Part shown: positions 2,401 to 47,826 of the stretch, in pieces
Layout of the letters: each line of letters opens with the position of its first letter
How positions within the stretch are numbered: the first letter of the stretch is position 1
Source: Candidatus Aminicenantes bacterium
GTDB taxonomy: Bacteria; Acidobacteriota; Aminicenantia; Aminicenantales; Aminicenantaceae
Reading direction: 5' to 3'
DNA length: 59,189 nt
NCBI GenBank assembly: GCA_046538375.1
Contig: JBKHJA010000001.1
Span: 1-59,189 of the forward strand
Program-made: the position numbers and the translations under genes
Notes under the pieces: generated by a model
Told to the model about the DNA's origin: nothing
Seen by the model: the letters and a program-made list of their open reading frames with translations, nothing else
The model's database searches: none

Positions 2401-3410
2401 ATCTTCCTTTTCACTGCCCCGGTTAAAGGTTTCAGCTCATCCATCATTCGTTTGAATTCCTGTAAATTCAGGCTTTGAGGGCCATCACTCATAGCTTTTT
2501 CCGGGCAGGGATGGACTTCCACTAAAAGGGCATCTGCTCCAGCGGCCACAGCTGCTTTGGAAGCAGGAATGACCAAAGATCTGAGTCCTGTGCCGTGGCT
2601 GGGATCAATACAGACGGGCAGATGGGAAAGCTGATGGAGGAGGGGAATGGCTGTCAGATCAAGGGTGTTCCGGGTGTATTTCTCGAAAGTTCTGATCCCT
2701 CTCTCACAGAGAATGACCCGGGAATTGCCGTTAGAAAGAATATATTCGGCGGCCATCAGAAATTCTTCCAGTGTGGACATCATCCCCCTTTTCAAAAGGA
2801 CAGGTTTTTTGGATTTGCCCACCGCCTCAAGAAGAGCATAGTTCTGCATGTTTCTGGTTCCCACCTGGAAAATATCAGCGACTTCTCCCACTAAATGCAG
2901 GTGTTCAGGTGCCATCACTTCGGTGACCACCGGAAGACCGAATTTGCTTTTTGCCTCCAGAAGAAACTCCAGGCCTTTTTCCTTAAGGCCCTGAAAACTG
3001 TAGGGAGAAGTCCGGGGTTTAAAGGCTCCCCCCCTTAAAATCTTTGCTCCAGCTTCCTGAACTGCCTGGGCTGTTTCCAATATCTGCTCCCTGCTTTCTA
3101 TGGCACAGGGCCCCGCTATTACCACCACCATTTCATCTCCTACACTGACACCGTCTATGCGGAAAACACTCTTCTGGGGCTTGAATTCTCTGCTGGCCAG
3201 CTTAAAGGGTTTTAAGATAGGTATGACATTCTCCACTCCCGGAAAGACTTTAAAATGCTCAGGAAGCACCTGTCTTCCGTTTCCGATCAACCCGATGATG
3301 GTCCTTTCTTTTCCCTTGGAGAGGTGAGCTTTGAATCCCAGCTTCTTCACTTCCTTAAGGATGGTGGAAAATTGTTTGAGGGTGTGTTGAGTTTTCATCA
3401 CGATTATCAT
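2397..3410 (-). CDS. aroF: 3-deoxy-7-phosphoheptulonate (DAHP) synthase, type I-beta with N-terminal regulatory extension
   Basis: 337-aa ORF. The catalytic part has [21 protein letters not shown] and CIDPSHG motifs of the KDO8PS-like DAHPS class. The first ~75 aa ([39 protein letters not shown]) look like the ferredoxin-like regulatory domain of Thermotoga-type enzymes. Confidence 0.9.
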
Positions 3411-14555: not shown

Positions 14556-15301
14556 CTGTAAGAATTATTCCCTGTCTTGATGTTGAAGACGGGAAAGTGG
14601 TCAAAGGGATAAAATTTAAAGGAATCCGGTATGCCGGAGATCCGGAGGAACTTGCCGGTTTGTATAACCACCAGGGGGCTGATGAGATCATCTTTCTTGA
14701 TATTGCAGCCACTTACAAAAGCCGGAAAATCATGATAGATGTGGTGGAGAAAGTATCCAAAAAGGTCTTTGTTCCCCTGACCGTAGGAGGGGGAATCAGA
14801 AATATCCAGGATATGAGAGAGCTGCTCAACGCCGGCGCTGATAAGGTTTCCATCTGTTCAGCTGCCCTTGAGAACCCGGAACTGATTAGAGACGGGGCTG
14901 CGGTCTTCGGTTCCCAGTGCATGGTTCTTTCCATTGATGCCAAAAGGATGGATGATTCGTGGCACGCCTTTGTCAAAGGAGGAAGGGAGGATACAGGAAT
15001 CGATGCCTTGGAATGGGCCCAAAGAGGCGAACAGCTTGGAGCCGGTGAGATTCTCCTCAATTCCATCGACTCTGATGGGACAAGGGCAGGTTATGATCTT
15101 GAATTGACCAGACGGGTCTCAGAAAAGGCTTCTATTCCTGTCATCGCTTCTGGAGGTGCTGGGAATTTAAACCAGATTTTTGAAGCCATTGAAACCGGAA
15201 AAGCAGACGCCGTTCTTGTTGCCTCTTTACTCCATTATAAAGAATACAGTGTTTCAGATATCAAAAGCTATCTAAAAAAGAGATGGATTAGAATCAGATG
15301 A
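14549..15301 (+). CDS. hisF: imidazole glycerol phosphate synthase, cyclase subunit
   Basis: MLTVRIIPCLDVEDGKVVKG, the canonical HisF N-terminus. The track starts at TTG 14537. I prefer ATG 14549, which overlaps the hisH stop by 7 nt. Confidence 0.95.
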   Translation: MLTVRIIPCLDVEDGKVVKGIKFKGIRYAGDPEELAGLYNHQGADEIIFLDIAATYKSRKIMIDVVEKVSKKVFVPLTVGGGIRNIQDMRELLNAGADKVSICSAALENPELIRDGAAVFGSQCMVLSIDAKRMDDSWHAFVKGGREDTGIDALEWAQRGEQLGAGEILLNSIDSDGTRAGYDLELTRRVSEKASIPVIASGGAGNLNQIFEAIETGKADAVLVASLLHYKEYSVSDIKSYLKKRWIRIR

Positions 15302-16560
15302 TCATTTCTTCCATAGATCTCCATAAAGGTAAAGCTGTTCAATTAAAACAGGGGCGGAAAAAAATGCTTGAACGAGATGATCTTCTTACCCTGGCTGGAG
15401 AGTTTTCAAAATTTGGTGAAATCGCCGTGGTAGACTTGGATGCTGCCTTTGGTAACGGCAACAACGATGCGGCCATCCAGCAAATATGCCAGGTCGCAGA
15501 ATGTCGGGTTGGAGGAGGAATAAGAAGTATTGATCGGGCAACAGAAATTCTCGGTTTGGGAGCAGAAAAAATTATCATCGGCACCAAAGCCTTTGAAAAG
15601 AACAGGGTCAACCACCAATTTTTAAAGTCCCTGTGTTCAGTCATCGGCAAAAACAGAGTGGTGGTGGCCATCGATTCCTTTGAGGGAGAGATCGTCGTGC
15701 ACGGCTGGCAGCGCAGAACAGGATTGAACTTTGAGACCGTTTTAAAAGAAGTGGAAAACTACACTTCAGAATTTCTTTTTACCTGTGTGGAAAGAGAGGG
15801 CATGATGAAAGGAACAGACTTTGGCCTGATTAAGGATTTAAGAGCGGCTACGGATTTACCCATCACAGCCGCTGGGGGGATATCGGCTCTACATGAAATC
15901 GAGAAATTATCTAGACTTGGGGTCAATGTCCAGTTAGGCATGGCTCTTTATACAGAAAAAATCAGCTTGCCCCATGCCTTCATGGCCTCGCTGAGGTGGG
16001 ATAAAGATTTGATTCCTACTGTAACCGTGGATACTGGATCACAGGTGTTGATGCTGGCTTACAGCAGCAGGGAGTCTTTGGGCAGGACTTTTGAGACAGG
16101 TAGAGTCTGGTATTTTTCCCGCTCCAGAAATAAGCTCTGGATGAAAGGGGAGACTTCTGGGAACTTTCAGAAATTTCTGAAGGTCAGGACAGACTGTGAC
16201 GGCGATGCCTTGTTGATGACAGTCGATCAAAAAGGAAACGCCTGCCACACCGGAACATATTCTTGTTTTGGGAATAAAGCCTTTTCTCTGAAGGAGCTTT
16301 ATGATGTCCTCTTAGATAGAATGAAAAATCCCTCACCTGAATCTTATACATCCTCTTTAACAGAAAAAGCGTTAGGGAAGAAAATCATGGAAGAAGCAGA
16401 AGAATTGGCGGAGGCACGGAAAAAAGAAGAAATTATCTGGGAGACAGCCGATATGCTCTATTTTATCAGTGTTCTCCTCGCCAAAAAGGATGTTCCTTTA
16501 GATGCCGTCTTCCAGGAACTCAAACTGCGAAGGAGAACTCCAAAAAAAGAGAAAGAGTGA
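15298..16560 (+). CDS. trifunctional fusion: ProFAR isomerase (HisA-like) + PR-AMP cyclohydrolase (HisI) + PR-ATP pyrophosphatase (HisE)
   Basis: 420-aa ORF. Residues ~1-235 form a HisA-type (beta/alpha)8 domain (SIDLHKGKAVQLKQG ... VGGGIRS ... AAGGIS). Residues ~240-330 are HisI (WMKGETSGNFQ ... DCDGDALL ... CHTG..SCF). Residues ~335-420 are HisE (helical NTP-pyrophosphatase, EEAEELAEA ... ETADMLYF). Confidence 0.85.
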   Translation: MIISSIDLHKGKAVQLKQGRKKMLERDDLLTLAGEFSKFGEIAVVDLDAAFGNGNNDAAIQQICQVAECRVGGGIRSIDRATEILGLGAEKIIIGTKAFEKNRVNHQFLKSLCSVIGKNRVVVAIDSFEGEIVVHGWQRRTGLNFETVLKEVENYTSEFLFTCVEREGMMKGTDFGLIKDLRAATDLPITAAGGISALHEIEKLSRLGVNVQLGMALYTEKISLPHAFMASLRWDKDLIPTVTVDTGSQVLMLAYSSRESLGRTFETGRVWYFSRSRNKLWMKGETSGNFQKFLKVRTDCDGDALLMTVDQKGNACHTGTYSCFGNKAFSLKELYDVLLDRMKNPSPESYTSSLTEKALGKKIMEEAEELAEARKKEEIIWETADMLYFISVLLAKKDVPLDAVFQELKLRRRTPKKEKE

Positions 16561-23617: not shown

Positions 23618-24451
23618 TTGAAGATTTGCACTTTTAATGTCAATTCCATAAAAGCCAGAAAGGATTTGATTGTCAATTGGCTGAAGCATAGGGAGAATGA
23701 CCTGGATATTTTGTGTTTTCAAGAATTAAAAACAGTGGACCAGGATTTTCCTTACCAGGATTTCGAAAATATGGGATTTTCTTGTGATGTGGCTGGTCAA
23801 AAAGGATACAATGGTGTGGCCATCTGTTCGAAATTTCCCCAGAGAAGGGTGTTAAAGGATGCCATCGAAAAGCACTGGGATGAACAGAAAAGAGTCATAG
23901 CGGTTAAGGTAAAGGGAATCGATCTGATCAATGTCTATGCTCCCCATGGAGATATGAGGGGAACGGATAAATTTCAGTATAAATTGGATTGGTACAAGAA
24001 ACTTTGTGCCTTTCTCCAGCAGCATTACTCAGCCCGCGATTATCTCATGGTGATGGGTGATTTTAACGTGGCCCTCCAAGACAGGGATGTCTGGTCACCG
24101 GAGATCCTGGCCGACTCTATCGGAACCATGCCTGAAGAGAGGCAGGCCTTCCGGGAACTTATGGAGTGGGGTCTGGTCGACGCTTTCAGGCATCTCTATC
24201 CGGATAAAAGACAATTCACCTGGTGGGATTACATCGGCGGCGCCATCTGGAAGGATTTGGGCATGAGGATCGATTATGCCCTCTGTACCAGACCCTTAAT
24301 CGAGAAATTGGAGAACGTGGAAGTGGATTTATGGCCGAGAAGGAGAAGAAAGCCCACCCCTTCAGATCATGCTCCACTCACCGCCGCTTTCGCTCCCTTT
24401 TCAGAAGAGAAAGGCAGGAAGACAAATAGACGGTTCATTCCACAGCGGTGA
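23618..24451 (+). CDS. xth: exodeoxyribonuclease III
   Basis: 277-aa ORF with a TTG start 6 nt after AGAAAGAGG. (M)KICTFNVNSIKAR ... ILCFQELK ... GDFNV ... PSDHAPL are the ExoIII/AP-endonuclease motifs. The 3' end overlaps the convergent SBP gene by 17 nt. Confidence 0.9.
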   Translation: MKICTFNVNSIKARKDLIVNWLKHRENDLDILCFQELKTVDQDFPYQDFENMGFSCDVAGQKGYNGVAICSKFPQRRVLKDAIEKHWDEQKRVIAVKVKGIDLINVYAPHGDMRGTDKFQYKLDWYKKLCAFLQQHYSARDYLMVMGDFNVALQDRDVWSPEILADSIGTMPEERQAFRELMEWGLVDAFRHLYPDKRQFTWWDYIGGAIWKDLGMRIDYALCTRPLIEKLENVEVDLWPRRRRKPTPSDHAPLTAAFAPFSEEKGRKTNRRFIPQR

Positions 24452-25985
24452 ACACGTCGTGCATGTTCATCCGGCCGTCAGGAATGGGACGCCAGCCTTT
24501 CAGTCGTTTCCTCGCACCGTAGATTTCCTTCATGCTGTAGCCAAAAATCCAGGGGGCATCCTGGAAGATGAGATGCTGGGCCTGGCGTAAGAATTGTTTT
24601 CTTTTCTCGGTGTCCATTCCCTTCTCCGCCTTCTCCAGGAGATGGTCCACAGCAGGATTTGAATAACCGGTATAGTTTCCCCTTCCTTTGCTGTGAAGAG
24701 TGGGTTTGAGGATACCGATCGAATCCAGACTGGCATCACCCCAACTGGAAATGAATAGAGTCCGCTCCTGCTTCATAAGAAGAGTCCTGAGCACCCCCCA
24801 TTCCCAAAGCCGCACCTTGGCTTTGACCTTGACCCTGGCCAACTGAGCGGATAGGGCCAGAGCGATTTCGTTCAAGTCCTGCACGGTATCCAGCTCCACT
24901 TCAAGACCATTCTCATATCCTGCTTCTTTGAGCAGCCTCCGAGCCTTCTGGGGATTGTGCTGATAAGGTCTCAGATCATCATGGTAGCCAAATGATCCCA
25001 GCATCAAAGGGCCGGGCAGCCGCACGGCCATTCCTTCCAGGATGGTATTGATGATAGAGTCTATGTCCACGGCATGGTTCATGGCCCTCCGGACTCTGGG
25101 GTCATCAAACGGAGGCCTGGTGCAGTTCATACCCATGTAGAAACTGCGCGTTCCTCGGCAGGAGAGGATGCGGGTGCGGGGATCTTTGGCTATGTTGCTC
25201 ATCAAATGGGGAGGAACCATCTGAATCAAATCGCATTCCCCTGCTTTCAGAGCAGCCACCCGGGTGGCAGTCTCAGGAATGGGTCTGAAGATCAGGGTCT
25301 TTATGCGGGCTTTTCCTGCTGGAGGAATCTCCGGAGAGCCGCCGTAGTATTGATCAAAGCGCTCCATGATGATGTGTTCGCCTTTCCGCCATTCCACGAA
25401 TCGAAAGGGCCCTGCTCCCACCGGATGTTCGGCAAAATAGGATGAGCCCACCTTCTCCACATAATCCTTGGGGATAATTTCTTGAAAAGGAAGCATGGCT
25501 ATCAGGGTGGGCCACGGTTCGCTGGTCTTGATATGGACAGTGTAATGGTCGATTATGTCCACTCCGGTCACCGGCCCCAGAAGGCCTTTCCGGGGCGAAC
25601 TTTGTCCGTCTACAGCTCCCCGGGTGATAATCCGCTCTATGGTGAATTTCACATCTTCAGCGGTAAAGGGTTCCAGGTTGTGGAAGCGGATGCCTTTTCT
25701 CAATTTGAATTCCCAGGTGTTTTTATCAACCAGCCTCCATTTTTCTGCCATCTGGGGCACCACCTTCATGTCAGGCGTGCGGGTGACCAGTCCGTCAAAC
25801 ATGTTGCGTATCACTGTCTCCACCACCCGGTCGCGGTGCATGGCCGGATCCAGGGTGGAGACAGTCTGGGAAAGCCCGATAATCAAAAGCCCCTTGTGTT
25901 GAGGAGATCTGCACCCTGCTGTGGTGGCCAGTCCTATACCTAGAAGCAAAAATAGAGGTTTGGTGAATAATTTTCTCATTGACAT
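24435..25985 (-). CDS. ABC transporter substrate-binding lipoprotein, peptide/nickel/opine family (cluster 5)
   Basis: 516-aa ORF with a lipobox LATTAGC. The DppA/OppA-like pattern includes LDPA...D, and the length is typical of family-5 SBPs. Its start abuts the stop of the upstream fusion gene (25985/25986). Confidence 0.88.
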   Translation of the reverse strand: MSMRKLFTKPLFLLLGIGLATTAGCRSPQHKGLLIIGLSQTVSTLDPAMHRDRVVETVIRNMFDGLVTRTPDMKVVPQMAEKWRLVDKNTWEFKLRKGIRFHNLEPFTAEDVKFTIERIITRGAVDGQSSPRKGLLGPVTGVDIIDHYTVHIKTSEPWPTLIAMLPFQEIIPKDYVEKVGSSYFAEHPVGAGPFRFVEWRKGEHIIMERFDQYYGGSPEIPPAGKARIKTLIFRPIPETATRVAALKAGECDLIQMVPPHLMSNIAKDPRTRILSCRGTRSFYMGMNCTRPPFDDPRVRRAMNHAVDIDSIINTILEGMAVRLPGPLMLGSFGYHDDLRPYQHNPQKARRLLKEAGYENGLEVELDTVQDLNEIALALSAQLARVKVKAKVRLWEWGVLRTLLMKQERTLFISSWGDASLDSIGILKPTLHSKGRGNYTGYSNPAVDHLLEKAEKGMDTEKRKQFLRQAQHLIFQDAPWIFGYSMKEIYGARKRLKGWRPIPDGRMNMHDVFTAVE

Positions 25986-28592
25986 TCAGTGGGCAAGATG
26001 ACAGGCAACCAGGCGGCCTTCTTCTGTGGATCGGAGTTCTGGCTCTTGCTTTGTGCAGTCCTTCACCTGGGGGAGGGGACAGCGGGGGTGGAACCGGCAT
26101 CCAGAGGGAGGATTCACCGCAGTGGGAGTTTCCCCTGAAATCCGGAGGCCTTTAGGGCCTGGCTGCTGGCCGACTTCCAGGACCGAATCCAGAAGAAGCC
26201 GGGTGTAAGGATGCTGCGGTGAATCGATGATTTGATTCCTGGTTCCTGTCTCCACAATTTTTCCCAAATACATGACCGCAATGCGGTCGCTTATCTGAGC
26301 AATCACTGCAAGGTCGTGGGCGATAAGAAGATAAGTCAAATCAAATTCCCGCTGGAGATTTTTCAACAGGTTCATGATCTGGGCTTGGATAGAAATGTCC
26401 AGTGCAGCCACCGGTTCATCAGCCACTATAAACCGGGGATGAACCGCCAATGCCCTGGCAATCCCGATGCGCTGCCGCTGGCCGCCGCTGAATTGATGGG
26501 GATAATGGCCGGCCCATTCACAGGAAAGCCCCGCCTGTTCCATAAGCCGGAATACTTTCTTTTCCTTTTCCTCTGCTGTCAGGTTGAAGTGGAGTTTCAA
26601 AGGGAGAGAGAGAATTTTTTTGACCGTCTGACGGGGATTGAGTGAGGCATAGGGGTCTTGGAAGATGATCTGCATCTCGGTGCGCAGGGGGCGCAGCTGC
26701 CGCCAGCTCAGGTGGGTAATGTCCAGGTCTTTGAAAAGAATTTGTCCTTCAGTGGGTTCCTCAAGCCTGAGGATGGTTCGTCCTAGAGTGGACTTGCCGC
26801 AGCCGCTCTCGCCCACCAATCCAAGGACTTCCCCTGGATAAATGTCGAGGGAGACGCCATCCACTGCCCGGATGTGCGCTCCTTTTTTCCTCCGGGTTTT
26901 GGTGACCGGAAAATGTTTCTTGAGATTCCTGATTCGAATCAGCGGTTGATCTGCTGGGTTTGAACGGCCAGCATTCTTTTGGTGGGTGCCAGGATTGTGT
27001 CCAGCAGGTTTTCCGTATCCTCCGCCGCCAGGAGTGATGATGCGGAGGAGATCCCCGCGCTTCAACTTATGGGGTTTTCGAGGATTGAGTACTTTTTCTC
27101 TCTTGGTTCCGGGATTCAGGACCCATTTGCCCTTCTGGCCGGGCTGGCCCCCAAACAAACCTGGAGGGGCCATCTTCTGCCGGTCTGTCTTTCCCATCTG
27201 GCTTACTCCATCTGCCAGCACCCGGATATCCTTTTGCAGACCCCGTCCTCCTGGCCAGCGTCCTCTGCCTCCAGAGTGAGGGACCAGCTTATGCCTTTCT
27301 ATACGAACCGGAAATTCGGTTTCTGCCACTTCCACGGGCAGGTTGATGGAATTGGAGGTGTTGGTCTGGACCCCGTCCAGGCCGTCTTTACCCGGACGGC
27401 CCCCGTCGCCTCCTCCTAGGACTTCTTCGTACACGAAGACCTGCTTTGTTTGAGGGTGTCGACCGCTCAGACAGCACACAGTGGTGCAGCCGCAGCCTGA
27501 GGCCTTGGCTCTCTCCGGGAGAGCCTGAGCCAGGGCGCCGATCACCACATCAGCCACCCGCTGCATGGTGTCAGAGCGGGCTCCTACTGCTGCCGGAAAT
27601 CGAGGATTGACCACGGTTCCTTTTTCTCCTGCTTGGATGATGACAGGGCGAAAGCAGCCGGAGTTGGGAGGTATGGTAGGATCGGTAAAACAGCGAACCG
27701 CAAAATAGACACCCACCTTGAGGTTAGAGCGGGGAAGATTGATGGCCCCTTGGGCTTGGGGATCAGTGCCTGAAAAGTCCATCTTCATCTGATCACCGGC
27801 GACCTCCGCACACACCCTGATGGCCTTCGGAGGACCGCCCATACCGTCATCATCCATGGCATCCTCATACTCATACACGCCGTCGGGGATTTTCTCGATT
27901 TCTTCTCTCATCCGCTTTTCCGAGTACTCCTGCACCGCTCTCATGCCAGCCAGCAGTGCCTCTCTCCCGTATTTTTTTACGGCCTCCAGGAGGCGGCGTT
28001 CGCCGGTACGGCAGGCAGCGATTTGAGCGCTCAGGTCGCCCCGGAATGTTTCTGGAGTGCGGACATTGGCAGCGATAAGGCCGATCAGGTCTTGATTGAA
28101 TTCACCCCGGTGGCAGAGCTTCATCACCGACAGCCGCACTCCCTCCTGGAAAATCTCTTGATTATCCCCTGCGTAACTGGCTGGAAGACGTCCTCCTATA
28201 TCCTGATGGTGTCCGATATTGGAGACAAATCCCATCAGTTTTCCTGCTTGGTAAACCGGAGCAGAAACAGTGATGTCGTTCAAGTGGGCACCACCGCCCA
28301 CATAAGGATCATTGGCCAGAAAAATGTCTCCTTTGTGGATGGATTCATTTTCTGATGGGGAAAGAATAGCCTGACTTAAACCTAAGAGAGAGCCCAGATG
28401 GACAGGATTGTGTTCCCCCTGAGCCACACAGTTCCCCTGGGCATCGAACAGGGCACAGGAACAGTCTTCTCTTTCCTTGATTCCGGGGGAATAACTGCTC
28501 CTGACCAGAGCCAGCCACATTTCGTCAGTGATAGTCAGGAACAGGTTGTTCAGCAGTTCAAAAGTAATAGGATCCACTCTTTCCATGAACAT
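25986..28592 (-). CDS. fusion protein: hydantoinase B/oxoprolinase-family subunit (N-terminal ~525 aa) + oligopeptide-type ABC transporter ATP-binding domain (C-terminal ~320 aa)
   Basis: Uninterrupted 868-aa ORF. The N-terminal half has RVDPITFELLNN...SYSPGIKEREDCSCALFD ... ITPGGGGYG (HyuB pattern). The C-terminal half has Walker A GESGCGKS, signature FSGGQRQR, Walker B FIVADEPVAALD, H-loop IAHDL, and a C-terminal CRFHPRCP motif as in DppF/OppF. Confidence 0.85.
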   Translation of the reverse strand: MFMERVDPITFELLNNLFLTITDEMWLALVRSSYSPGIKEREDCSCALFDAQGNCVAQGEHNPVHLGSLLGLSQAILSPSENESIHKGDIFLANDPYVGGGAHLNDITVSAPVYQAGKLMGFVSNIGHHQDIGGRLPASYAGDNQEIFQEGVRLSVMKLCHRGEFNQDLIGLIAANVRTPETFRGDLSAQIAACRTGERRLLEAVKKYGREALLAGMRAVQEYSEKRMREEIEKIPDGVYEYEDAMDDDGMGGPPKAIRVCAEVAGDQMKMDFSGTDPQAQGAINLPRSNLKVGVYFAVRCFTDPTIPPNSGCFRPVIIQAGEKGTVVNPRFPAAVGARSDTMQRVADVVIGALAQALPERAKASGCGCTTVCCLSGRHPQTKQVFVYEEVLGGGDGGRPGKDGLDGVQTNTSNSINLPVEVAETEFPVRIERHKLVPHSGGRGRWPGGRGLQKDIRVLADGVSQMGKTDRQKMAPPGLFGGQPGQKGKWVLNPGTKREKVLNPRKPHKLKRGDLLRIITPGGGGYGKPAGHNPGTHQKNAGRSNPADQPLIRIRNLKKHFPVTKTRRKKGAHIRAVDGVSLDIYPGEVLGLVGESGCGKSTLGRTILRLEEPTEGQILFKDLDITHLSWRQLRPLRTEMQIIFQDPYASLNPRQTVKKILSLPLKLHFNLTAEEKEKKVFRLMEQAGLSCEWAGHYPHQFSGGQRQRIGIARALAVHPRFIVADEPVAALDISIQAQIMNLLKNLQREFDLTYLLIAHDLAVIAQISDRIAVMYLGKIVETGTRNQIIDSPQHPYTRLLLDSVLEVGQQPGPKGLRISGETPTAVNPPSGCRFHPRCPLPQVKDCTKQEPELRSTEEGRLVACHLAH

Positions 28593-28596
28593 TACC

Positions 28597-30717
28597 TCAA
28601 TGCCTGGTCAGCATAAGATTTTCATGAGAATCTCTTCGAGCCTTCCACCCAGGAGGAATCACTGTGGTGGAATTGGGTTCTTCTATGACGGCCGGCCCCT
28701 CAATCTCGGTGACCCTGGCTGGACAGAGGTTGGTCCGTTCATAGATAGGCGTTTCCACCAAGCCCTGGCTCTGTTTGAAAAAGACTTTCCTTTTTCCTTT
28801 GAAAACCGATTGATTTGCTTTGGGATGATAATGCGGCAGCGCAATATCTGGACTTTTTACAATTATAGTGACCCTTAAATTGACCAGCTGGAGAGGATGA
28901 TGGGGGTGGGAGTGTCCGTAGAAGTGGTGGTGTTCAGTATGGAAACGATTTGCCACTTTCTGCAGATGGTTTTGCTTCAGGGGTCTGGAGGGGAACGAAA
29001 TGTTAAGCCAGTGAGTTTGACCTTGGTAGCGGATATCTGCGCTTCGCTTCACCTGCCCTTTTTTGCTGGGCACCTGTTTTTTTAACTGCTGGCGGGCTTT
29101 CTTCTCCAGGCCGCCAAAAAGGTTTTCTATTTCTTCTGTTTTCCTGGAGGAGAGGGGCATCATCCTGGCCAGGGAAACATCCACCCGCAGATCACTGGCC
29201 AGCAGCCCGTAACAGGAAAAAAGGCCGGGTTCCACAGGAACGATGACTTTGGGGATTTGAAGTTCTTCAGCCAAATCCGCCCCATGCGCTCCTCCAGAGC
29301 CGCCAAAAGCGATCAGGGTGAACTGTCTGGGATCCTGTCCTCTCTCCAGAGAGATAAATCTGAGCGCCCGCAGCATATTGGCGTTGGCGATCTGGATGAT
29401 ACCTTGGGCAGCCTGGAAAATGCTCAGCCCTAACGGTTCAGCGATCTTGGATTGAATGGCAGTGCGGGCTGCCCGGGCATCCAGGGGCATCCTTCCTTCC
29501 AGGAAGTATTTGGGATTGAGACGCCCTAAAACCAAGTTGGCATCGGTCACCGTAGGACTTTTCCCTCCTTGGCCGTAGCACACTGGTCCAGGATTTACCC
29601 CTGCGCTTTGAGGGCCCACATTCAAGGCTCCCCCAGAATCTATCCAGGCAGTGCTCCCTGCTCCAGCGCCCACTTCAGCCAGATCGAGGCTGGGCAGGCG
29701 AAGCGGATATCCTCCTCCTTTTTTAACATTATGCCCGTACAGGCTTCCTCCGATCTCCTGTTCTGAGGTGAAGGGAGATTGCCCGTCCTGTATCAGGCTG
29801 GCTTTGGCTGTGGTGCCGCCCATATCAAAGGAGATGGCATTTTTCAGATTGAGTAATCTGGCCAGGTGGGCGGAAGCGGTCACTCCTGCTGCTGGTCCGG
29901 ACTCCACCATTTTGGCCGGGAGTTCTCTAGCCATGACCGGAGTCATCATGCCTCCGTTGGATCCCATGATACGCAGGGAATTGGCACTTCCTTTCTCCTG
30001 CACTGCCTTCTCCACTTTGCTTAAATATTGGTCTACCAGAGGGCGCAGACAGGCGTTGATCACGGTGGCCGATGTCCTTTCGTATTCCCGAATCTCAGGC
30101 AGGACTTCTGAGGAAAGGCAGACCATAACTTCTGGATAATACCGGCTGATGGTTTCTTTGACTTTATACTCGGAGGCAGGATTGAGGTAGGAGAACAGAA
30201 AACACACAGCCAAAGCACTCACTTTTTCCTGTTTGACCAGTTTTTTCAGGACAGGGTCCAATTCTTTTTCATTGACCGGGGTCAGGATATTTCCGCTGGC
30301 ATCGGTCCGTTCCGAAACTTCTTTCCTCAGGCAAGAAGGAATGAGAGGAGGGATTTTCTCTGTAAAAAAATCATAGGGTTGGGGCCTTTTCTGCCTGGCG
30401 ATTTCCAGGATGTCTCCAAATCCTTTGGTGGTTATTAAGGCAGTCTTGGCCGTTTTGCCCTCTAAGATGGCATTGGTGGCTGCAGTGGTGGCGTGGATGA
30501 GAACACTCATTTCCTCAGGACTTTTCTGGGCCTTGTTCAACAGTTCTTCCCAGGCTTGAAGAAAGCCCAGGGAAACATCTGGAGTGCTGGTGGCAACTTT
30601 GGTGGTGAATGTCTTTCCTTCTTGTTGATCCATCAGCAGACCATCGGTAAAAGTCCCTCCGATGTCAACACCCACTTTAAACCTGGTCATGGTTTTCCTC
30701 TTTTTTGGGGAAGTCAA
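28597..30717 (-). CDS. hydantoinase A/oxoprolinase-family subunit (ATP-binding, actin-like fold)
   Basis: 706-aa ORF. KVGVDIGGTFTD is the N-terminal phosphate-binding motif, followed by a second GGT motif (SFDMGGTTA). The length is typical of HyuA. Alternative start at ATG 30690 (MTRFKVGVDIGG). Confidence 0.9.
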   Translation of the reverse strand: MTSPKKRKTMTRFKVGVDIGGTFTDGLLMDQQEGKTFTTKVATSTPDVSLGFLQAWEELLNKAQKSPEEMSVLIHATTAATNAILEGKTAKTALITTKGFGDILEIARQKRPQPYDFFTEKIPPLIPSCLRKEVSERTDASGNILTPVNEKELDPVLKKLVKQEKVSALAVCFLFSYLNPASEYKVKETISRYYPEVMVCLSSEVLPEIREYERTSATVINACLRPLVDQYLSKVEKAVQEKGSANSLRIMGSNGGMMTPVMARELPAKMVESGPAAGVTASAHLARLLNLKNAISFDMGGTTAKASLIQDGQSPFTSEQEIGGSLYGHNVKKGGGYPLRLPSLDLAEVGAGAGSTAWIDSGGALNVGPQSAGVNPGPVCYGQGGKSPTVTDANLVLGRLNPKYFLEGRMPLDARAARTAIQSKIAEPLGLSIFQAAQGIIQIANANMLRALRFISLERGQDPRQFTLIAFGGSGGAHGADLAEELQIPKVIVPVEPGLFSCYGLLASDLRVDVSLARMMPLSSRKTEEIENLFGGLEKKARQQLKKQVPSKKGQVKRSADIRYQGQTHWLNISFPSRPLKQNHLQKVANRFHTEHHHFYGHSHPHHPLQLVNLRVTIIVKSPDIALPHYHPKANQSVFKGKRKVFFKQSQGLVETPIYERTNLCPARVTEIEGPAVIEEPNSTTVIPPGWKARRDSHENLMLTRH

Positions 30718-31735
30718 GATGACACCTCACCTGCCAGTTTCCATCTACAGTGAGGAGCCGGGGTTTTTCTTTCCGGCAGCGTTCCATCAGATGAGGACAG
30801 CGGTCCTGGAAGGTACATCCAGGCGGCAGGTCAGACAGATCCGGAACTTCCCCAGGAATGGGGTAGATGTACTTTTTTCTCTGTAATGCGGGAAGGCATT
30901 CCAGAAGACCCTGGGTGTAGGGGTGTCTGGGGGAAGAAAAGACCTGGGAGGTCAATCCGTGCTCCACAATTTGTCCGGCGTACATCACCGCCACCCGTTT
31001 GCAGAGATAGTCTATGGTCCCTATGTCATGGGTGATAAGAAGGATCGAGGTTCTGTATTTTTCTCTGATTTCAGCCAGAAGGTTCAGGATTTGCACCTGT
31101 ACGGTCACATCCAGGGCGGTGGTTGGCTCGTCAGCAATGAGCAGTAAAGGATTGCAGGCCAGCCCGGCAGCAATGATGGCCCGCTGACGCATCCCTCCGC
31201 TCAACTGGTGAGGATACTGGCGGGTTCGCTCTCTAGGAGATGGGATGTGGACCAGCCGCATGAGCTCCAGAACCCTCTGTTGAATAGTCCCTCTCTGGGC
31301 CTGGTTATTCTTCCTTTCTGGCTGCCAGTGGTGGATTTTTAGAACCTCAGCAATTTGATAACCCACCTGAAGCACAGGATTGAGAGTGGTCAGGGGATCC
31401 TGGAAAACCATGGCTATGGACCGTCCCCGTATCCGCTGCATTTCCTTTTCCGGCTGCTGGAGCAGGTCCACACCTTGGAAAAAGATTTCTCCGGAGACAA
31501 TCCGGCCCGGTGGGGATATAAGGCGGAGGAGGGAGAGAGCAAATACACTTTTTCCGCACCCGGATTCTCCCACCAGTCCCAGAGCCTCACCCTGGTTCAG
31601 GATCAAGCTTACTCCATCCACTGCCTTCACTGTGCCCTGGTGAGTAAAGAAATAGGTGCTCAGATTGTTTATGTTCAGTAAAGGTGACCGGTAAGCTGCG
31701 GGGTTTATGTTTTTTTTGTTCTCTTTGATCTTCAT
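30677..31735 (-). CDS. oligopeptide/dipeptide-type ABC transporter ATP-binding protein (DppD/OppD-like)
   Basis: The track ORF 30677..32260 is over-extended. Its first ~175 codons overlap the permease gene in another frame. The true start is ATG 31735 (MKIKENKK...), which forms an ATGA overlap with the permease stop. Walker A GESGCGKS, LSGGMRQR, IADEPTTALD and ITHD motifs are present. Confidence 0.9.
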   Translation of the reverse strand: MKIKENKKNINPAAYRSPLLNINNLSTYFFTHQGTVKAVDGVSLILNQGEALGLVGESGCGKSVFALSLLRLISPPGRIVSGEIFFQGVDLLQQPEKEMQRIRGRSIAMVFQDPLTTLNPVLQVGYQIAEVLKIHHWQPERKNNQAQRGTIQQRVLELMRLVHIPSPRERTRQYPHQLSGGMRQRAIIAAGLACNPLLLIADEPTTALDVTVQVQILNLLAEIREKYRTSILLITHDIGTIDYLCKRVAVMYAGQIVEHGLTSQVFSSPRHPYTQGLLECLPALQRKKYIYPIPGEVPDLSDLPPGCTFQDRCPHLMERCRKEKPRLLTVDGNWQVRCHLDFPKKEENHDQV

Positions 31736-32610
31736 CTCATCTGACTCTTGAGTCTGGGGTCCAGGACTTCGCGCAGCCCGTTTCCGAACATATTCACTCC
31801 CATCACCATGATGAGAATAGCCAGGCCGGGAAAGGTGGCGATCCACCACTCTTCGAGGAGGTAGGCTCTGCCTTCGCTGACCATCCCCCCCCAGCTGGGG
31901 AAGGGAGGCTGAATACCCAGACCCAGAAAGCTCAAAGAGGCTTCCAGCAGGATGATGATAGCCACGTTGAGAGTGGCGAACACCATCACTGAGGAGAGCA
32001 CATTGGGGAATATCTCTCCAGCCATGATACGGCCATGGCCGGCCCCCATGGACTCTGCGGCCTCCACATATTCCCGGGTTTTGGCGGACAGAGTGTCCCC
32101 CCGCACCAGGCGGCAGAAGGGCACCCAGCCTTTTATGGTCAAAGTGATGATGATGTTCATCAATCCCGGCTTGAGAAAGGCCATCATGCCGATAGCAAAA
32201 AGCATGAAAGGAAAAGCCAGGAGAATATCCACTATCCGGGATATCACTGAATCCAGCCATCCGCCGAAATAGCCGGCCAAAAGGCCCAGCACAGATCCTA
32301 TAAAGGCAGAGAGGATGACCACCACCACTCCTACCAGGATAGAAACACGTGCCCCATACAGGATCCGGCTCAACAGATCACGCCCTTGCTGGTCGCAGCC
32401 TAAGGGATAGGTCCAGTCACCTCCCTTCATCCATGCCGGCGGTTTGAATCGGTTTGTCAAACGGCCGTGAAAAGGATCATGGGGAGAAATGAGGGGAGTG
32501 AAAACAGCGCACAGGGTGAAGAGAAACACCACTCCACCGCCCACCACAGCCAGTCGGTGGCGGCGGATCTTAAGCCAGAATGAGCGCAAGTTTCTTGAAT
32601 CCATCCTCAT
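31732..32610 (-). CDS. ABC transporter permease (DppC/OppC-like)
   Basis: 292-aa polytopic membrane ORF with an N-terminal RRHRLA... pattern and the EAA-loop region YVEAAESMGAGHGRIM. Confidence 0.9.
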   Translation of the reverse strand: MRMDSRNLRSFWLKIRRHRLAVVGGGVVFLFTLCAVFTPLISPHDPFHGRLTNRFKPPAWMKGGDWTYPLGCDQQGRDLLSRILYGARVSILVGVVVVILSAFIGSVLGLLAGYFGGWLDSVISRIVDILLAFPFMLFAIGMMAFLKPGLMNIIITLTIKGWVPFCRLVRGDTLSAKTREYVEAAESMGAGHGRIMAGEIFPNVLSSVMVFATLNVAIIILLEASLSFLGLGIQPPFPSWGGMVSEGRAYLLEEWWIATFPGLAILIMVMGVNMFGNGLREVLDPRLKSQMR

Positions 32611-32621
32611 CCTATTCTCTA

Positions 32622-33635
32622 TCAGACATTCTCAATCCTGGGATTGAGGTAGGTGTACAGCATGTCGGTAGCGAAATTGATGACCACATAGGTCACTGCG
32701 TAAAGCAGCACAGCGCCTTGAACCAGAGGGTAGTTGCGGGCATAAATGGCATCCACTGTCATCCGGCCCAGTCCGGGCCAGCCGAACACGGTTTCGATGA
32801 TCATATTGCCGCCCAAAAGAGACCCCAGTTGAAGGCCCACCACACTTATCACCGGAATCATGGCGTTTTTGAGAGCATGATTCAAGGCCACCACTCTTTC
32901 CGGAAGACCCTTAGCCCTGGCGAAAAGGATGTAATCCTGCTGAAGCATCTCCAGCATGGAAGCACGAGTCATCCGCATGGTCACCGCTGCTGTCCATCCT
33001 CCCAGGGCCACAGCTGGAAGCAGCAGGTGACGCAGGGCACTCAGGAGGGCCGCTCCGTTGAGGGTGATCATGGAATCCAGAACATAGCAGCCGGTGATGG
33101 TTTTTAAAGAAATACCATAGTCGATCCGCCCTGAAACAGGCAGCCATTCCAGTCTCATTCCGAAGATGAGAATGAGCAGCACTCCGATCAAAAAGCCGGG
33201 CATGGAGATACCCAGCAGGGCTGACCAGGAGGCTCCGTGATCCAGGATTCCATGCGGCCGCATGGCTGAGATCATTCCCAGAGGGATGGCCACCAGCAGG
33301 GCCAGGAACATGGCGGTGAAGGTCAGCTCCACGGTGGCCGGAAGATAATCACCGATCACTTCTGTTACCGGGCGCTGGTGAGTGAAGGAGAGGCCTAAGT
33401 CGCCCTGCACAGCTCTGGTGATGAAGTAAAAATATTGAACAGGAAAAGGCCGGTCCAGGCCGTATTGATGCCGAAGCTGCTCCACTTCCTGTTGGCTGAC
33501 TCCTGCCGCTTCCCCCATCATCAGTTCCACCGGATCGCCGGGAGTCAAATGCAGGAAGGAAAAGATGATGAAACTGACACCCATAAGCACCAGGATGGTT
33601 TGGGCCGAACGCTTGGCTAAGAACCGAATCCACAT
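32622..33635 (-). CDS. ABC transporter permease (DppB/OppB-like)
   Basis: 337-aa polytopic membrane ORF. The N-terminus has LTPGDPVE and the EAA loop is DYILFARAKGLPERVV. Confidence 0.9.
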   Translation of the reverse strand: MWIRFLAKRSAQTILVLMGVSFIIFSFLHLTPGDPVELMMGEAAGVSQQEVEQLRHQYGLDRPFPVQYFYFITRAVQGDLGLSFTHQRPVTEVIGDYLPATVELTFTAMFLALLVAIPLGMISAMRPHGILDHGASWSALLGISMPGFLIGVLLILIFGMRLEWLPVSGRIDYGISLKTITGCYVLDSMITLNGAALLSALRHLLLPAVALGGWTAAVTMRMTRASMLEMLQQDYILFARAKGLPERVVALNHALKNAMIPVISVVGLQLGSLLGGNMIIETVFGWPGLGRMTVDAIYARNYPLVQGAVLLYAVTYVVINFATDMLYTYLNPRIENV

Positions 33636-34029: not shown

Positions 34030-35388
34030 ATGAACCGCTGCTTGAAAGGATGGATAATCTTTTTTTCCTGCCTGTTTGTATATCTCCATGGTGGGGACGG
34101 GCAGCCTGTGGAGGAAAAAACTTTTTCCATAGCCTTGACCGGAGACTCCATTATCACCAGGAAGCTGTCGGTGTACCAGGAGCCGGAGTTCAGGAAAATG
34201 ATCGAACTCATTCGACAGGCGGATGCGGCCTTCACCAATCTTGAGATCCTGTTCCACGACTACGAATCCTACCCCATGCACCAGAGCGGGGGAACTTATA
34301 TGAGAACCGATCCTTCCCTGGCTGCAGAGCTTTGTTGGGCTGGCTTTGATATGGTCTCCCGGGCCAACAACCATGCGGGTGACTATGGTGTTTTAGGCAT
34401 GCATTTGACAACCAAGTATGTGGATCAGGCAGGTTTAGTCCATGCTGGAGTAGGGGACAGTCTTGCCGAAGCACGGGAAGCCAGGTTTCTGGATACGGCC
34501 AAAGCCCGTCTGGCTTTGGTTTCGTGTGCTTCATCCTTTCCTGACCATGCCCGGGCTGGAAAGACCCGAGGCGGTATCCCTCCCAGGCCCGGACTGAATC
34601 CTCTGCGCCACCAGACTACCTATGTGGTGACACCCCCACAGTTTGAAATGTTAAAGGAAATAGGGGAACAGTTGGGGATGAAGCTCTCAGAAAAAGAGGA
34701 GGAGATTAAGTTTCTGAGTTCCCGCTTCATGAAAGGAAAAGAGCCCCAAGTTCGCACTGAACCGCTAAAGGAAGATCTGGAAGAAATTGCTGCTGTGGTC
34801 GAAAATGCCAGCCGCTTGGCGGATTATACCCTGGTGAGTATCCATGCCCATGAAAGCAAAAAGGAGCGCTTTGTTCCAGCCCAGTTTCTGATCACCTTCG
34901 CTCACGCCGTGATTGAGGCAGGTGCGGATGTGGTGGTGGGACATGGCCCTCATGTGCTCCGGGGAATTGAGATTTATCAAGGGAAACCCATCTTCTACAG
35001 CTTGGGCAATTTCATATTCCAGAACGAAACTCTTCTGCGCCTGCCTTATGAAAACTACCAGCGCTACAAATTGGGCCCGGACAAGCATGTGGCTGATTTT
35101 AATGATGCCCGCTATGACTTGGACCGGAAAGGATTTCCAGCCAAGGAGGAATTCTGGGAGTCGGTGATCGCTGTTCCCTGCTGGATGGGAAAAAAGCTGG
35201 AGGAGATTAAACTGTATCCCATAACCTTGGGGTATGGGAAACCGCGGACTGTCCGCGGCCGGCCATTATTTGCTGAGGGGGATTTAAGATTAAAGATTAT
35301 CCAGCGCCTCAAGCGTTACTCCCAGCCTTACGGCACTGCCGTTGATTATCAGGAAGGAATCGGAGTAATAAGATTATCTTCTCAATAA
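34030..35388 (+). CDS. CapA/PGA_cap-family metallophosphatase-fold protein, exported
   Basis: The track ORF starts at 33739. I use ATG 34030, preceded by AAGGAGGA, giving a signal-peptide start MNRCLKGWIIFFSCLFVYLHG. Motifs are LTGDS, ANNHAGDYG, VSIHAHE and VVGHGPHVLRGIE. Confidence 0.8.
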   Translation: MNRCLKGWIIFFSCLFVYLHGGDGQPVEEKTFSIALTGDSIITRKLSVYQEPEFRKMIELIRQADAAFTNLEILFHDYESYPMHQSGGTYMRTDPSLAAELCWAGFDMVSRANNHAGDYGVLGMHLTTKYVDQAGLVHAGVGDSLAEAREARFLDTAKARLALVSCASSFPDHARAGKTRGGIPPRPGLNPLRHQTTYVVTPPQFEMLKEIGEQLGMKLSEKEEEIKFLSSRFMKGKEPQVRTEPLKEDLEEIAAVVENASRLADYTLVSIHAHESKKERFVPAQFLITFAHAVIEAGADVVVGHGPHVLRGIEIYQGKPIFYSLGNFIFQNETLLRLPYENYQRYKLGPDKHVADFNDARYDLDRKGFPAKEEFWESVIAVPCWMGKKLEEIKLYPITLGYGKPRTVRGRPLFAEGDLRLKIIQRLKRYSQPYGTAVDYQEGIGVIRLSSQ

Positions 35389-35656: not shown

Positions 35657-37249
35657 ATGGGTCATCGTTCAAAGATTTATGCAGAGAAAAAACATCTTTC
35701 GCCGATGAGAAAGGTTTTAAGGATCAAAGTGTTCTTGATGGCACCTTTTTTCTTTCTTATTTTTCATTGTGCAGCCGGATGCCAGGGAGTAGATAAAAAT
35801 AAAGAAGACATAAGAATTGCCGTGGCCAGATTTTCCCATGAGACCTGCACTTTTTGTCCCCAGCCCACCACCGTCGAGGATTGGGAATACTATGGTCCGC
35901 CCACCCGTGATATTGTGGATACCAACAGGGGATACATAGGGGGCTTTAAAAACATGTGCCAGGAGTATGGAGGCGTTGAGCTGGTGGGGATCATTTCACC
36001 TCGAGGGGCCAGGGGAGGTTCTTCGGGAAGCTGGAACACCAGAGAGGTTTTTGAAAAATACTCTAACCTCATCATCGAAGATCTGAAGGAGTTAGGCCTC
36101 TTTGATGGGATTTTTCTTTCACTCCATGGAGCCATGGCTGTGGAGGGCATCCCCAAGCCTGAAGCTGAGCTGGTGCGAAGAGTGCGGAAAGCAGTGGGTG
36201 ATATCCCCATCATGATCACCTTGGACCTTCATGCCAACGAAGATCACCAGCTTTCCGATGCTGCTGATGGGGTGTTCATTGTCAAGAGGTATCCCCATTA
36301 CGATACCTTTCTTCAAGGAGAGAGGGCAGCCCGGGTGATGATCAACACCATCCGCGGCAGTTATCAGCCCTGTATGGCCACCCGAAAGCCAGGAGTGATC
36401 ACTCCCAGTGTTTATCAGGGGACAGGTGTCTCTCCGGCCATGGATATCATGGAGCGGGCCCGCCGGTGGGAATGCCGGTATCCCGGTGTCTATGTGTCTG
36501 TGGCTTTCGGATTCGCTTATGCTGATGTCCCTGATGTGGGAGCCACGGTCATGGTGGTGGCCGACAGCGACCAGGAACTGGCTGACCGGATTGCTGATGA
36601 TATGTCTGACTACATCTGGAGGATGAGGGAAGAGTTTGCCGGGAAAAAGCTTCCCCAGACCAAACAAGGAGTGGCTCTAGCCATCCAGGCCGTAGAAGCT
36701 GGGAAAACTCCTGTGGTGATCGCTGATCACAGCGACAGAACCGGTGGATCCACCCACATCCTGGAAGAGTTGATCAGCCAAGGCGCCAGGAATTTCTGCA
36801 TAGCCACTCTCCGGGACGAAAAAGCGATCCAGAGGATAAAAAAGACAGCGAAGGTGGGTGAAAAGATCACCATCCATGTGGGCGGATATACGGACAAATT
36901 TGCTGGAAATCCAGTGAGGATTGAAGGAACCGTTGAGTTTCTCGGAGATTATGGACAGAGGGGAACTGTGGCCGTGCTTCTTTTTGGCGAAAACAACCGT
37001 ATCATACTCACGCCTCAGCTCACCCAGGTGACCACCCCTGATTTTCTGGATCCTCTGGATATAGACATCAAAGACCTGGATATCATTGTGCTAAAGTCCC
37101 GGGTCCACTTCAGGAGAGGATTTTATGAAACCGGTTTGGCCGGGGCCATCTTTGAGGTGGACGCGCCAGGATGGGGTCCTGCCGATTTGAGCACTCTTCC
37201 TTATAAAAATATTCCCAAGGATATTTATCCTGTGTACAAGAAGGACTGA
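35657..37249 (+). CDS. M81-family (MlrC-like) metallopeptidase, lipoprotein
   Basis: 530-aa ORF with a GAGGAGGA Shine-Dalgarno and a lipobox HCAAGCQG. IRIAVARFSHETCTF is the characteristic MlrC N-terminal motif, followed by LSLHGAM and LDLHAN. Confidence 0.82.
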   Translation: MGHRSKIYAEKKHLSPMRKVLRIKVFLMAPFFFLIFHCAAGCQGVDKNKEDIRIAVARFSHETCTFCPQPTTVEDWEYYGPPTRDIVDTNRGYIGGFKNMCQEYGGVELVGIISPRGARGGSSGSWNTREVFEKYSNLIIEDLKELGLFDGIFLSLHGAMAVEGIPKPEAELVRRVRKAVGDIPIMITLDLHANEDHQLSDAADGVFIVKRYPHYDTFLQGERAARVMINTIRGSYQPCMATRKPGVITPSVYQGTGVSPAMDIMERARRWECRYPGVYVSVAFGFAYADVPDVGATVMVVADSDQELADRIADDMSDYIWRMREEFAGKKLPQTKQGVALAIQAVEAGKTPVVIADHSDRTGGSTHILEELISQGARNFCIATLRDEKAIQRIKKTAKVGEKITIHVGGYTDKFAGNPVRIEGTVEFLGDYGQRGTVAVLLFGENNRIILTPQLTQVTTPDFLDPLDIDIKDLDIIVLKSRVHFRRGFYETGLAGAIFEVDAPGWGPADLSTLPYKNIPKDIYPVYKKD

Positions 37250-47617: not shown

Positions 47618-47826
47618 TATACTGCAGAATTAAAAAGACTACGCAGGATATTTGGCCGCCTTTTTGCTTGACAAGGAGAAGAGGCGGGAATAGCATTTGA
47701 GTGGGCATGTCCTATCATTCATCCCCTATGAAGTCACTGAGAGATAATTTCTTAAACTTTTCATTAAAATTCCATAGATAGAGAAATGGTATGTCCATAT
47801 CTACACCAAAGGCGAAAGGAGAAGAA

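Follow-up and report, generated by a model that had tools for sequence, protein, structure and literature searches.

Why should the genes for a ring-opening enzyme lie in the middle of an operon for a peptide-type ATP-binding cassette (ABC) importer, and why should one subunit of that enzyme be joined to a transport ATPase? This question is raised by positions 24435-33635, minus strand, of a 59,189-nucleotide (nt) contig from a Candidatus Aminicenantes bacterium (JBKHJA010000001.1, assembly GCA_046538375.1); the entire contig was analysed and is called the window here. An original prediction, made from the sequence without database searches, described six genes in the order permease B, permease C, DppD-like ATPase, HyuA, a fusion of HyuB with a DppF-like ATPase (HyuB::DppF) and a family-5 substrate-binding lipoprotein. 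Pfam and NCBIfam matches and a reading of the fusion junction bore out this order, the coordinates and the fusion. We propose a catabolic uptake operon, in which hyuA and hyuB were inserted into a PepT-family importer operon at the junction between its D-type and F-type ATPase genes, and which would import and open a cyclic amide. We hold this reading with slightly better than even confidence.

The simplest reading of the gene order is that the window operon derives from a B-C-D-F-A operon (two permeases, two ATPases, binding protein) into which hyuA-hyuB would have been inserted exactly at the overlapping dppD/dppF junction. Insertion is shown by close relatives that carry the same transporter operon without hyuAB. 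Two metagenome contigs (L168 and L169; ENA ERZ23498360 and ERZ23498361) encode permB-permC-dppD-dppF-binding protein, and their products share 68% (permease B), 66% (permease C), 60% (DppD), 59% (DppF) and 65% (binding protein) identity with those of the window. These sister operons thus have the same five transporter genes in the same order and the same type of start-stop overlap between the two ATPase genes. They differ in that DppF (329 aa) is encoded by a gene of its own that starts with an ATG, in that a gene for a CBAH (Ntn amidase) protein follows the binding protein gene, and in the absence of hyuA and hyuB.

The sequence at the junction itself was compared with that of the relatives. 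In both sister operons and in a more distant one (L172), the ATG of dppF lies inside the His-Asp codons (CAT GAx) at the DppD C-terminus. In the window, dppD likewise ends in CAT GAC, and there the ATG within it is the start codon of hyuA. The N-terminus of DppF from L168 (MTEPLVQVK) aligns with A547-DQPLIRIR of the fusion, and where its start codon would fall the window has GCA (Ala547). The stretch from the end of the HyuB fold (GGGGYG, aa 522-527) to the DppF core held no stop codon, no in-frame ATG, GTG or TTG and no ribosome-binding motif. On this evidence hyuA would have taken over the coupling site by using the ATG that starts dppF in the relatives, and dppF, left with neither a start codon nor a ribosome-binding site of its own, would be expressed only as the C-terminal domain of HyuB::DppF. 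No direct repeats, target-site duplications or mobile-element remnants were found flanking the hyuAB insert. A similarity of its two borders, CATGA(C/T)CA, is out of frame and was judged coincidental.

Recurrence of the six-gene order had been suggested as a check on the original prediction, and gene-neighbourhood comparison did not return it at any of the loci examined. The left junction alone was seen at one other locus, a 4.5-kb Armatimonadota contig with 67% GC (L133; DTZQ01000209.1 of MAG UWMA-0252), where a D-type ATPase gene (DppD 256 vs DppF 176 bits) is followed after 3 nt by hyuA-hyuB. This contig ends 11 codons past GGGGYG without a stop codon. Its D-type ATPase gene also ends in His-Asp codons containing an ATG (CAT GAT, within 730-800). 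The open reading frame (ORF) opened by this ATG has only 5 codons and precedes hyuA; the ATG may be what is left of an earlier dppF start at such a junction. What is new here is the insertion at the D/F junction, the HyuB::DppF fusion, which is not otherwise known from public data, and the distant Armatimonadota locus with the same left junction.

The region comprises six tightly coupled ORFs, with every gene and junction at the coordinates first given (Table 1). permB and permC are 11 nt apart, and permC and dppD share an ATGA overlap at 31732-31735. The dppD stop (30677) overlaps hyuA by 14 nt if translation of hyuA begins at ATG 30690, which has GAGG upstream, or by 41 nt if it begins at TTG 30717. 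The hyuA stop and the hyuB ATG are 4 nt apart, and the TGA of the fusion abuts the ATG of the binding protein gene (25986/25985). The likely start of HyuB is the second ATG, at 28586, and a GAGG motif precedes the starts of both hyuA and hyuB. Promoter and terminator scans gave no operon-internal signals above shuffled expectation, and the tRNA and Rfam scans gave nothing above background. GC content is 0.52-0.55 in all six genes, and GC and third-position GC (GC3) are uniform. These findings agree with the translational coupling claimed initially and support a single operon, coupled in translation, in which the genes of a peptide-type ABC importer are combined with those of HyuA/HyuB.

Table 1. 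Coordinates of the operon genes, the parts of the fusion and the flanking genes in the window.
Feature	Position	Strand	Evidence
Permease B (DppB/OppB-like), first operon gene	32622-33635	-	Pfam BPD_transp_1_N + BPD_transp_1
Permease C (DppC/OppC-like)	31732-32610	-	Pfam OppC_N + BPD_transp_1
DppD-type ATPase, 352 aa	30677-31735	-	ABC_tran + oligo_HPY; top NCBIfam matches are DppD/OppD models
HyuA, alpha ATP-binding subunit, 697 aa from ATG 30690	28597-30690	-	Hydant_A_N, Hydantoinase_A, Hydant_A_C
HyuB::DppF-like fusion, single 868-aa ORF	25986-28592	-	Hydantoinase_B aa 7-529, ABC_tran 578-729, oligo_HPY 780-841
HyuB domain of fusion, aa 1-531	27000-28592	-	Hydantoinase_B over full length (PF02538)
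Fusion junction/linker, aa 532-546, AGHNPGTHQKNAGRS	26955-26999	-	sequence between HyuB and DppF parts
DppF-type ATPase domain of fusion, aa 547-868 + stop	25986-26954	-	ABC_tran + oligo_HPY; NCBIfam DppF/OppF-type models aa 546-867
Family-5 substrate-binding lipoprotein, last operon gene	24435-25985	-	SBP_bac_5, 276 bits, full model; lipobox TTAGC
PGA_cap (CapA/MslH-like) exported protein	34030-35388 (listed ORF from 33739; likely start Met98)	+	signal-peptide-like stretch after Met98
MlrC-like M81 peptidase, predicted lipoprotein	35705-37249	+	DUF1485/M81 + MlrC_C; N-terminus ...FHCAAGC from Met of Logan gene call

The fusion was also found in an independent assembly. A 32,134-nt Logan contig encodes a product 100% identical to it, and this second assembly indicates that the arrangement is not an assembler artefact. 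Misassembly, which had been foreseen as one way to explain an arrangement unique to this contig, is thereby excluded, whereas the uniqueness of the six-gene order stands. A gene for DAHP synthase identical to window positions 2397-3410 is likewise found on a Logan contig of 32,134 nt, which is probably the contig that carries the fusion and would then bridge the flank and the junction. A chimeric join at the fusion point was considered and rejected, since the two halves have the same GC and GC3 and the second assembly agrees. In an AlphaFold2 model, the HyuB half reached a predicted local distance difference test score of ~90 up to residue ~533, and the ATPase half scored ~30-60 from an alignment too shallow for the domain interface to be read.

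We then asked whether HyuB is fused to an ABC ATPase anywhere else. No other protein combining Hydantoinase_B with an ABC ATPase was present among 8000 scored candidates drawn from 5.8 billion clusters. A tblastn search of 72,556 plasmids gave 18 records in which hyuB lies close to an ATPase gene; in none of them do the two form one coding sequence. A metagenome scan with the whole fusion was dominated by the pattern of the ATPase half and is uninformative on the fusion; the 80 loci kept from among the matches listed were all DppF-like genes without hyuAB nearby. The top-scoring database proteins for the fusion matched in two stretches, were ~650-800 aa long and were read as D-F double ATPases. 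Such double ATPases at the top of the list show that the N-terminus of an F-type ATPase tolerates fusion. A literature search for enzymes fused to ABC-importer ATPases found no such fusion, judging by titles. If HyuB::DppF is functional, we know of no earlier example in which a subunit of a catabolic enzyme is joined to the ATPase of a binding-protein-dependent importer.

Both the enzyme and the transporter parts look functional by their retained motifs. HyuA has, as DIGGTFTD, DMGGT and GVNPGP, the three ASKHA ATP-binding motifs known from caprolactamase and its relatives (PMC8453981). In HyuB, alignment shows conservation of all four metal ligands of CapB (D43, H103, D106 and H128), the Asp/His/Asp/His set that is essential in CapB by mutagenesis (PMC8453981). 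Against structures in the PDB, HyuA scored 424 bits with N-methylhydantoinase (7hk5), 398 bits with caprolactamase (6yra_A), 278 bits with acetophenone carboxylase and 233-234 bits with acetone carboxylase. The HyuB part scored 285 and 231 bits with 7hk5 and 6yra and 96 and 46 bits with acetophenone carboxylase (Apc) and acetone carboxylase (Acx), respectively. No gene for an extra small gamma or epsilon carboxylase subunit was found in the operon. The assignment to a ring-opening family made in the original prediction therefore held, and HyuAB did not cluster with the acetone or acetophenone carboxylases. By these scores HyuAB belongs with the lactamases, hydantoinases and oxoprolinases of the superfamily; of the enzymes compared, N-methylhydantoinase and caprolactamase are nearest to it and the two carboxylases are distant.

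The pair is not an equivalog of any characterised enzyme. The caprolactamase models of NCBIfam gave 541 bits for HyuA (alpha) and 280 bits for HyuB, below their equivalog cut-offs of 1000. HyuAB-type enzymes include 5-oxoprolinases (PMC8453981); no oxoprolinase model of NCBIfam matched HyuAB, whose only PDB relatives were those named N-methylhydantoinase, caprolactamase and carboxylases. The nearest HyuB homologues are 49% identical and unfused, no relative of HyuA or HyuB is closer than 49%, and the contexts of the closest HyuB and HyuA homologues nowhere showed the window gene order. Among the scanned window ORFs of at least 100 aa, none had an M20 domain as in HyuC-like N-carbamoyl-amino-acid amidohydrolases.

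The transporter has all components of the PepT family (Opp/Dpp/Nik, Transporter Classification 3.A.1.5): a family-5 binding protein, OppB-type and OppC-type permeases, and D-type and F-type ATPases with oligo_HPY, the two types being assigned by NCBIfam ranking. The F-type ATPase is present solely as part of the fusion protein. Walker A, Walker B, signature and H-loop are complete in both ATPase domains, with GESGCGKS, LLIADEPT and LSGGMRQR in DppD and GESGCGKS, FIVADEPV, FSGGQRQR and the H-loop IAHDL in the DppF domain. Both C-termini also carry four cysteines, as GCTFQDRCPHLMERC...VRCH in DppD (30677-30830) and GCRFHPRCPLPQVKDC...VACH in the fusion (25989-26100), a pattern that resembles the iron-sulfur-cluster motif reported for some Opp/Dpp ATPases. 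No component reached equivalog level for Dpp, Opp, Gsi, Nik, Cnt, Sap or Yej, all NCBIfam scores being under the curated cut-offs. Permease B came nearest to any cut-off (Opp2B nickel permease, 340.7 bits vs 350), and permease C gave 281.7 bits with Opp2C (cut-off 300). The top match of the binding protein was GsiB (194 bits vs a cut-off of 594), and DppA gave 143 bits vs 1005. Its closest relative, 81% identical, lies on a tiny contig and the next are 57-65% identical; the nearest on a contig longer than the gene (L176, 65%) starts 77 nt upstream, has stops in all frames and offers no operon context.

Linkage of hyuAB to Dpp-type importers is seen elsewhere in other forms. Dpp-type transporter genes lie near hyuAB, in gene orders other than that of the window, at ~9 of 80 genome loci collected with a HyuB profile, and at four of these (L086, L088, L133 and L161) the linkage is on the same strand and directly following. 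Same-strand contiguous clusters were found in Chloroflexota (L001-L003), Clostridiaceae (L088), Paenibacillus (L089 and L100), Elioraea (L161) and on Ketogulonicigenium plasmid pYP12. The Chloroflexota clusters (L001, 7779-17412; L003, 7669-17498; also L002) read hyuA-hyuB-binding protein-permB-permC with a second hyuA, and hold no ATPase genes.

The binding protein offers hints of the ligand. Compared with E. coli DppA, its subfamily has Ala or Asn in place of Asp408, and Arg355 falls in a deleted segment, in an alignment of only 27% identity; we take these two residues of DppA to be the anchors of the dipeptide termini. The motif LDPAMHRDR is invariant in the subfamily. The missing anchors argue weakly against an ordinary dipeptide and for a carboxylate-bearing ligand. 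Binding-protein relatives with 58-64% identity also occur in clusters with Octopine_DH, a B12-binding protein, a methyltransferase and an ATP-grasp (D-Ala-D-Ala ligase-like) enzyme (L170, 2221-11536; L171, 159-5122; L172, 1905-11887), and one protein match is named Candidatus Poribacteria. These clusters may represent an opine or opine-metallophore pathway with its importer. The enzymes of the Octopine_DH clusters, like the CBAH amidase of the sister operons, would have N-substituted amino-acid derivatives as substrates. A further hint is that the genes around the window operon encode exported enzymes of peptide processing. These hints are compatible with an opine-like lactam, with a hydantoin and with a cyclic dipeptide. 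Many genes called oxoprolinase possibly encode lactamases or cyclic-dipeptide hydrolases (Otzen et al., PMC6061476), and diketopiperazine-degrading enzymes are little known (PMC3852281); no literature linking diketopiperazines with oxoprolinase-type enzymes was found.

In the mechanism that we propose, the binding lipoprotein would capture a small, probably carboxylate-bearing cyclic amide in the periplasm, with an N-substituted 5-oxoproline or opine lactam, a hydantoin and a cyclic dipeptide as the candidate ligands. The permeases and the pair of DppD and DppF domain would import it, and HyuA, which binds ATP, and HyuB, which holds the metal site, would open the ring with consumption of ATP. 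The tethering of HyuB to the transport ATPase would place this reaction at the transporter exit. We infer that transporter and enzyme act on the same compound, that this compound belongs to the substrate class named above and that a functional fusion physically couples both steps. The general idea of import and opening of a cyclic amide, already contained in the original prediction, is thus reasonable and has precedent. Its particular substrate cannot be named, since HyuAB and every other component fall below the equivalog cut-offs. Beyond this, HyuB::DppF might be a functional, selected fusion that docks the HyuA-HyuB lactamase on the cytoplasmic face of the importer, so that hydrolysis occurs as the cyclic amide leaves the translocation pathway, a proposal that we make tentatively and regard as doubtful. 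HyuAB enzymes are (alpha-beta)2 tetramers (PMC8453981), and so the fusion could bridge two transporters.

Several findings weigh against the proposed uptake and ring-opening operon or against its fusion. The closest relatives of HyuA (47-49%) are encoded in hyuB-hyuA pairs without a transporter. The same binding-protein subfamily adjoins quite different enzymes, the CBAH amidase in L168/L169 and the Octopine_DH cluster in L170-L172. The binding proteins of the other hyuAB-linked clusters are only 23-30% identical to that of the window, which indicates that the association formed repeatedly and that there is no conserved orthologous system. An exhaustive search of 1.84 billion representative proteins gave a best match of 552 bits and no second fusion; a homologous HyuB-ATPase fusion would by our own estimate exceed 700 bits, and the 552-bit match was read as a D-F double ATPase (two matched stretches, ~700 aa). 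TrpB and sigma-70 of the contig are singletons at 90% identity, as expected of a poorly sampled lineage, and for this reason persistence of the fusion under selection cannot be shown. As a singleton in an unsampled lineage, the fusion is of uncertain biological weight.

The alternative that survives best is an ordinary cluster of a transporter and a catabolic enzyme, in which the fusion has no mechanistic meaning and arose from a very recent one-base deletion or a systematic sequencing error. The 69-nt junction was examined for the effect of every single-base insertion, deletion and substitution, 552 in all; two gave a stop for HyuB and, with it, a DppF ORF beginning at a canonical start codon. 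Both consist of one inserted T, after which dppF starts at a +1-frame ATG located 11 codons upstream of the DppF core. In the true or ancestral state hyuB would then end in ...NAGRS or ...SNPA and an overlapping dppF would start at this ATG (MLAV...). That the fusion is a singleton in all databases searched, and that no relative of the lineage is at hand to show its persistence, also fit this explanation, and the two single-T variants count against our reading as well. However, no more than these 2 of the 552 changes split the genes, the junction is not a homopolymer run and two assembly pipelines gave identical sequences. Furthermore, the +1-frame ATG has no ribosome-binding motif, whereas the starts of hyuA and hyuB have GAGG, and the ancestral dppF start position is now GCA. 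We regard a recent deletion or a systematic read error at the junction as largely rejected and the explanation as a whole as unlikely. The +1 frame itself contains a mini-ORF of 12 codons including the stop (26922-26957, minus strand; MLAVQTQQINR), whose end coincides with the beginning of the DppF core. It may be left over from an earlier state with two genes, or it may be there by chance.

A nickel or metal-chelate importer (Nik/Cnt-like, for an opine metallophore), with hyuAB present by chance or dependent on the imported metal, is less probable still. The scores of permeases B and C just under the Opp2B and Opp2C cut-offs (340.7/350 and 281.7/300) would agree with it, as would the neighbours of the L170-L172 binding proteins, which are reminiscent of opine-type metallophore clusters, the missing dipeptide anchors and the fact that HyuB is a metalloenzyme. 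It is opposed by the binding protein, which gave 123-171 bits with NikA, CntA and Opp5A (cut-offs 393-800), no better than with GsiB, and no gene for metallophore synthesis was found in the window. Insertion within the operon, translational coupling and an in-frame fusion are also more easily explained by co-function of transporter and enzyme. About equally improbable is a gamma-glutamyl/5-oxoproline cycle, with HyuAB as a 5-oxoprolinase whose imported substrates, 5-oxoproline or pyroglutamyl compounds, would be produced with the help of the gamma-glutamyltransferase (GGT) encoded nearby. Oxoprolinases do belong to the enzyme family, several exported peptidases accompany the GGT on the contig and the aga system described below acts on an N-substituted 5-oxoproline, but the link first drawn from the GGT is unsupported. 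This gene (47791-49701) lies 14 kb off in a separate transcription unit, with unrelated genes of either strand in between, and is paired with an SSF transporter and a GntR regulator of its own. The top named matches of HyuAB are N-methylhydantoinase and caprolactamase at scores well below equivalog level and we know of no family-5 binding protein with free 5-oxoproline as its ligand.

The surroundings of the importer-HyuAB operon were as first described: the opposite strand carries a CapA-like (PGA_cap) and an MlrC-like M81 gene, and the GGT lies 14 kb away. The top NCBIfam match of the PGA_cap protein was the lasso-peptide C-terminal Trp epimerase MslH (293 bits vs a cut-off of 700), and by this match its function might lie in peptide epimerisation and not in the capsule. 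The position of the PGA_cap and M81 genes alone would suggest a functional link to the operon. On the other side, the binding protein gene overlaps a convergent exonuclease III-like gene (23618-24451, Exo_endo_phos) by 17 nt at the 3' ends (24435-24451). Positions 19766-56209 are dense in exported and peptide-processing proteins, including two of beta-lactamase fold (one with DUF3471), the MlrC-like lipoprotein, the GGT, a TonB-dependent receptor with a CarboxypepD_reg domain, an M1 peptidase and a TldD/PmbA pair. The contig is chromosomal; upstream lie trp, aro and sigma-70 genes and a his operon. The his operon contains a second multi-domain fusion, a 420-aa ORF (15298-16560, plus strand) with His_biosynth (HisF/HisA-type), PRA-CH and PRA-PH (HisI, HisE) domains. 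GC content is split along the contig, with 0.43-0.49 in the trp, his and sigma-70 genes, 0.52-0.55 in the six operon genes and 0.50-0.53 in several other accessory genes (SSF, GGT, TonB receptor), which is compatible with, and no proof of, horizontal gain of the operon as a unit.

HyuA/HyuB genes are mostly without a known substrate and are often called oxoprolinase or N-methylhydantoinase by default. Clusters in which HyuAB is locked to an importer are the best places to look for true substrates, because the binding protein can be screened directly. The operon with and without the hyuAB insert forms a before-and-after pair, in which a catabolic module has been spliced into a translationally coupled operon and the geometry of the junction can force a fusion. 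If functional, the fusion would be a natural enzyme tethered to an ABC importer, a hard-wired transport metabolon that could serve as a model of how transport and metabolism are coupled and could guide the engineering of systems that take up and convert lactams (nylon monomers) or hydantoins. If it is only a strain-level accident, the locus would be an ordinary catabolic operon.

The fusion itself is most like the fused double ATPases of the GsiA/YejF type, in which an F-type domain also carries a large N-terminal partner via a short linker. There the partner is a D-type ATPase, whereas in the window it is a metalloenzyme subunit of ~530 aa and DppD is separate.

Resemblance in design was found on the octopine-type Ti plasmid NC_002377.1, where an Opp-like importer stands back-to-back with a flavin adenine dinucleotide (FAD) oxidoreductase and a HyuA/HyuB pair at 77.3-87.9 kb; pTiS4 has a similar layout, with hyuAB next to an Opp-like transporter. 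We take the NC_002377.1 region to be the agropinic-acid (aga) region, whose HyuAB-like AgaFG would open agropinic acid, a lactam that is an N-substituted 5-oxoproline. The aga gene names and functions reportedly go back to work by Lyi, Jafri and Winans in 1999 (Mol Microbiol 31:339), which PMC1713258 cites. The logic would be the same, import of a lactam followed by ring opening by a HyuAB-like enzyme, and the binding protein AgaA (PDB 6hlx) is homologous to that of the window (164 bits). In contrast to the window, the aga transporter and hyuAB form divergent operons without interleaving, and it is the D-type and F-type ATPases that are fused to each other, HyuB being a free protein. The FAD oxidoreductase (AgaE) precedes hyuAB there, and none was found in or beside the window operon. 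Identities of 39% for HyuA, 39% for HyuB and 29% for the binding protein indicate that the two systems are analogous, not orthologous.

On plasmid pYP12 of Ketogulonicigenium vulgare (NC_014626.1), one same-strand cluster reads binding protein-permease-permease-ATPase-ATPase-hyuB-hyuA. The hyuBA genes thus follow a complete transporter and do not separate the ATPases, there is no fusion, and a gene for a HyuC-like M20 amidohydrolase comes next, in keeping with the classical logic of hydantoin utilisation; the window has no such gene. The caprolactamase CapAB of Pseudomonas jessenii (PDB 6yra, PMC8453981) is likewise an ATP-dependent enzyme of two subunits, and the ATP motifs of its alpha and the metal site of its beta subunit are kept in the window. 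Its genes differ in being ordered B-A and are neither linked to a transporter nor fused. The pairing of a peptide-type importer with HyuAB is an established arrangement, represented by the aga region of Ti plasmids and by hyu operons, and the window operon works like these and is a member of neither.

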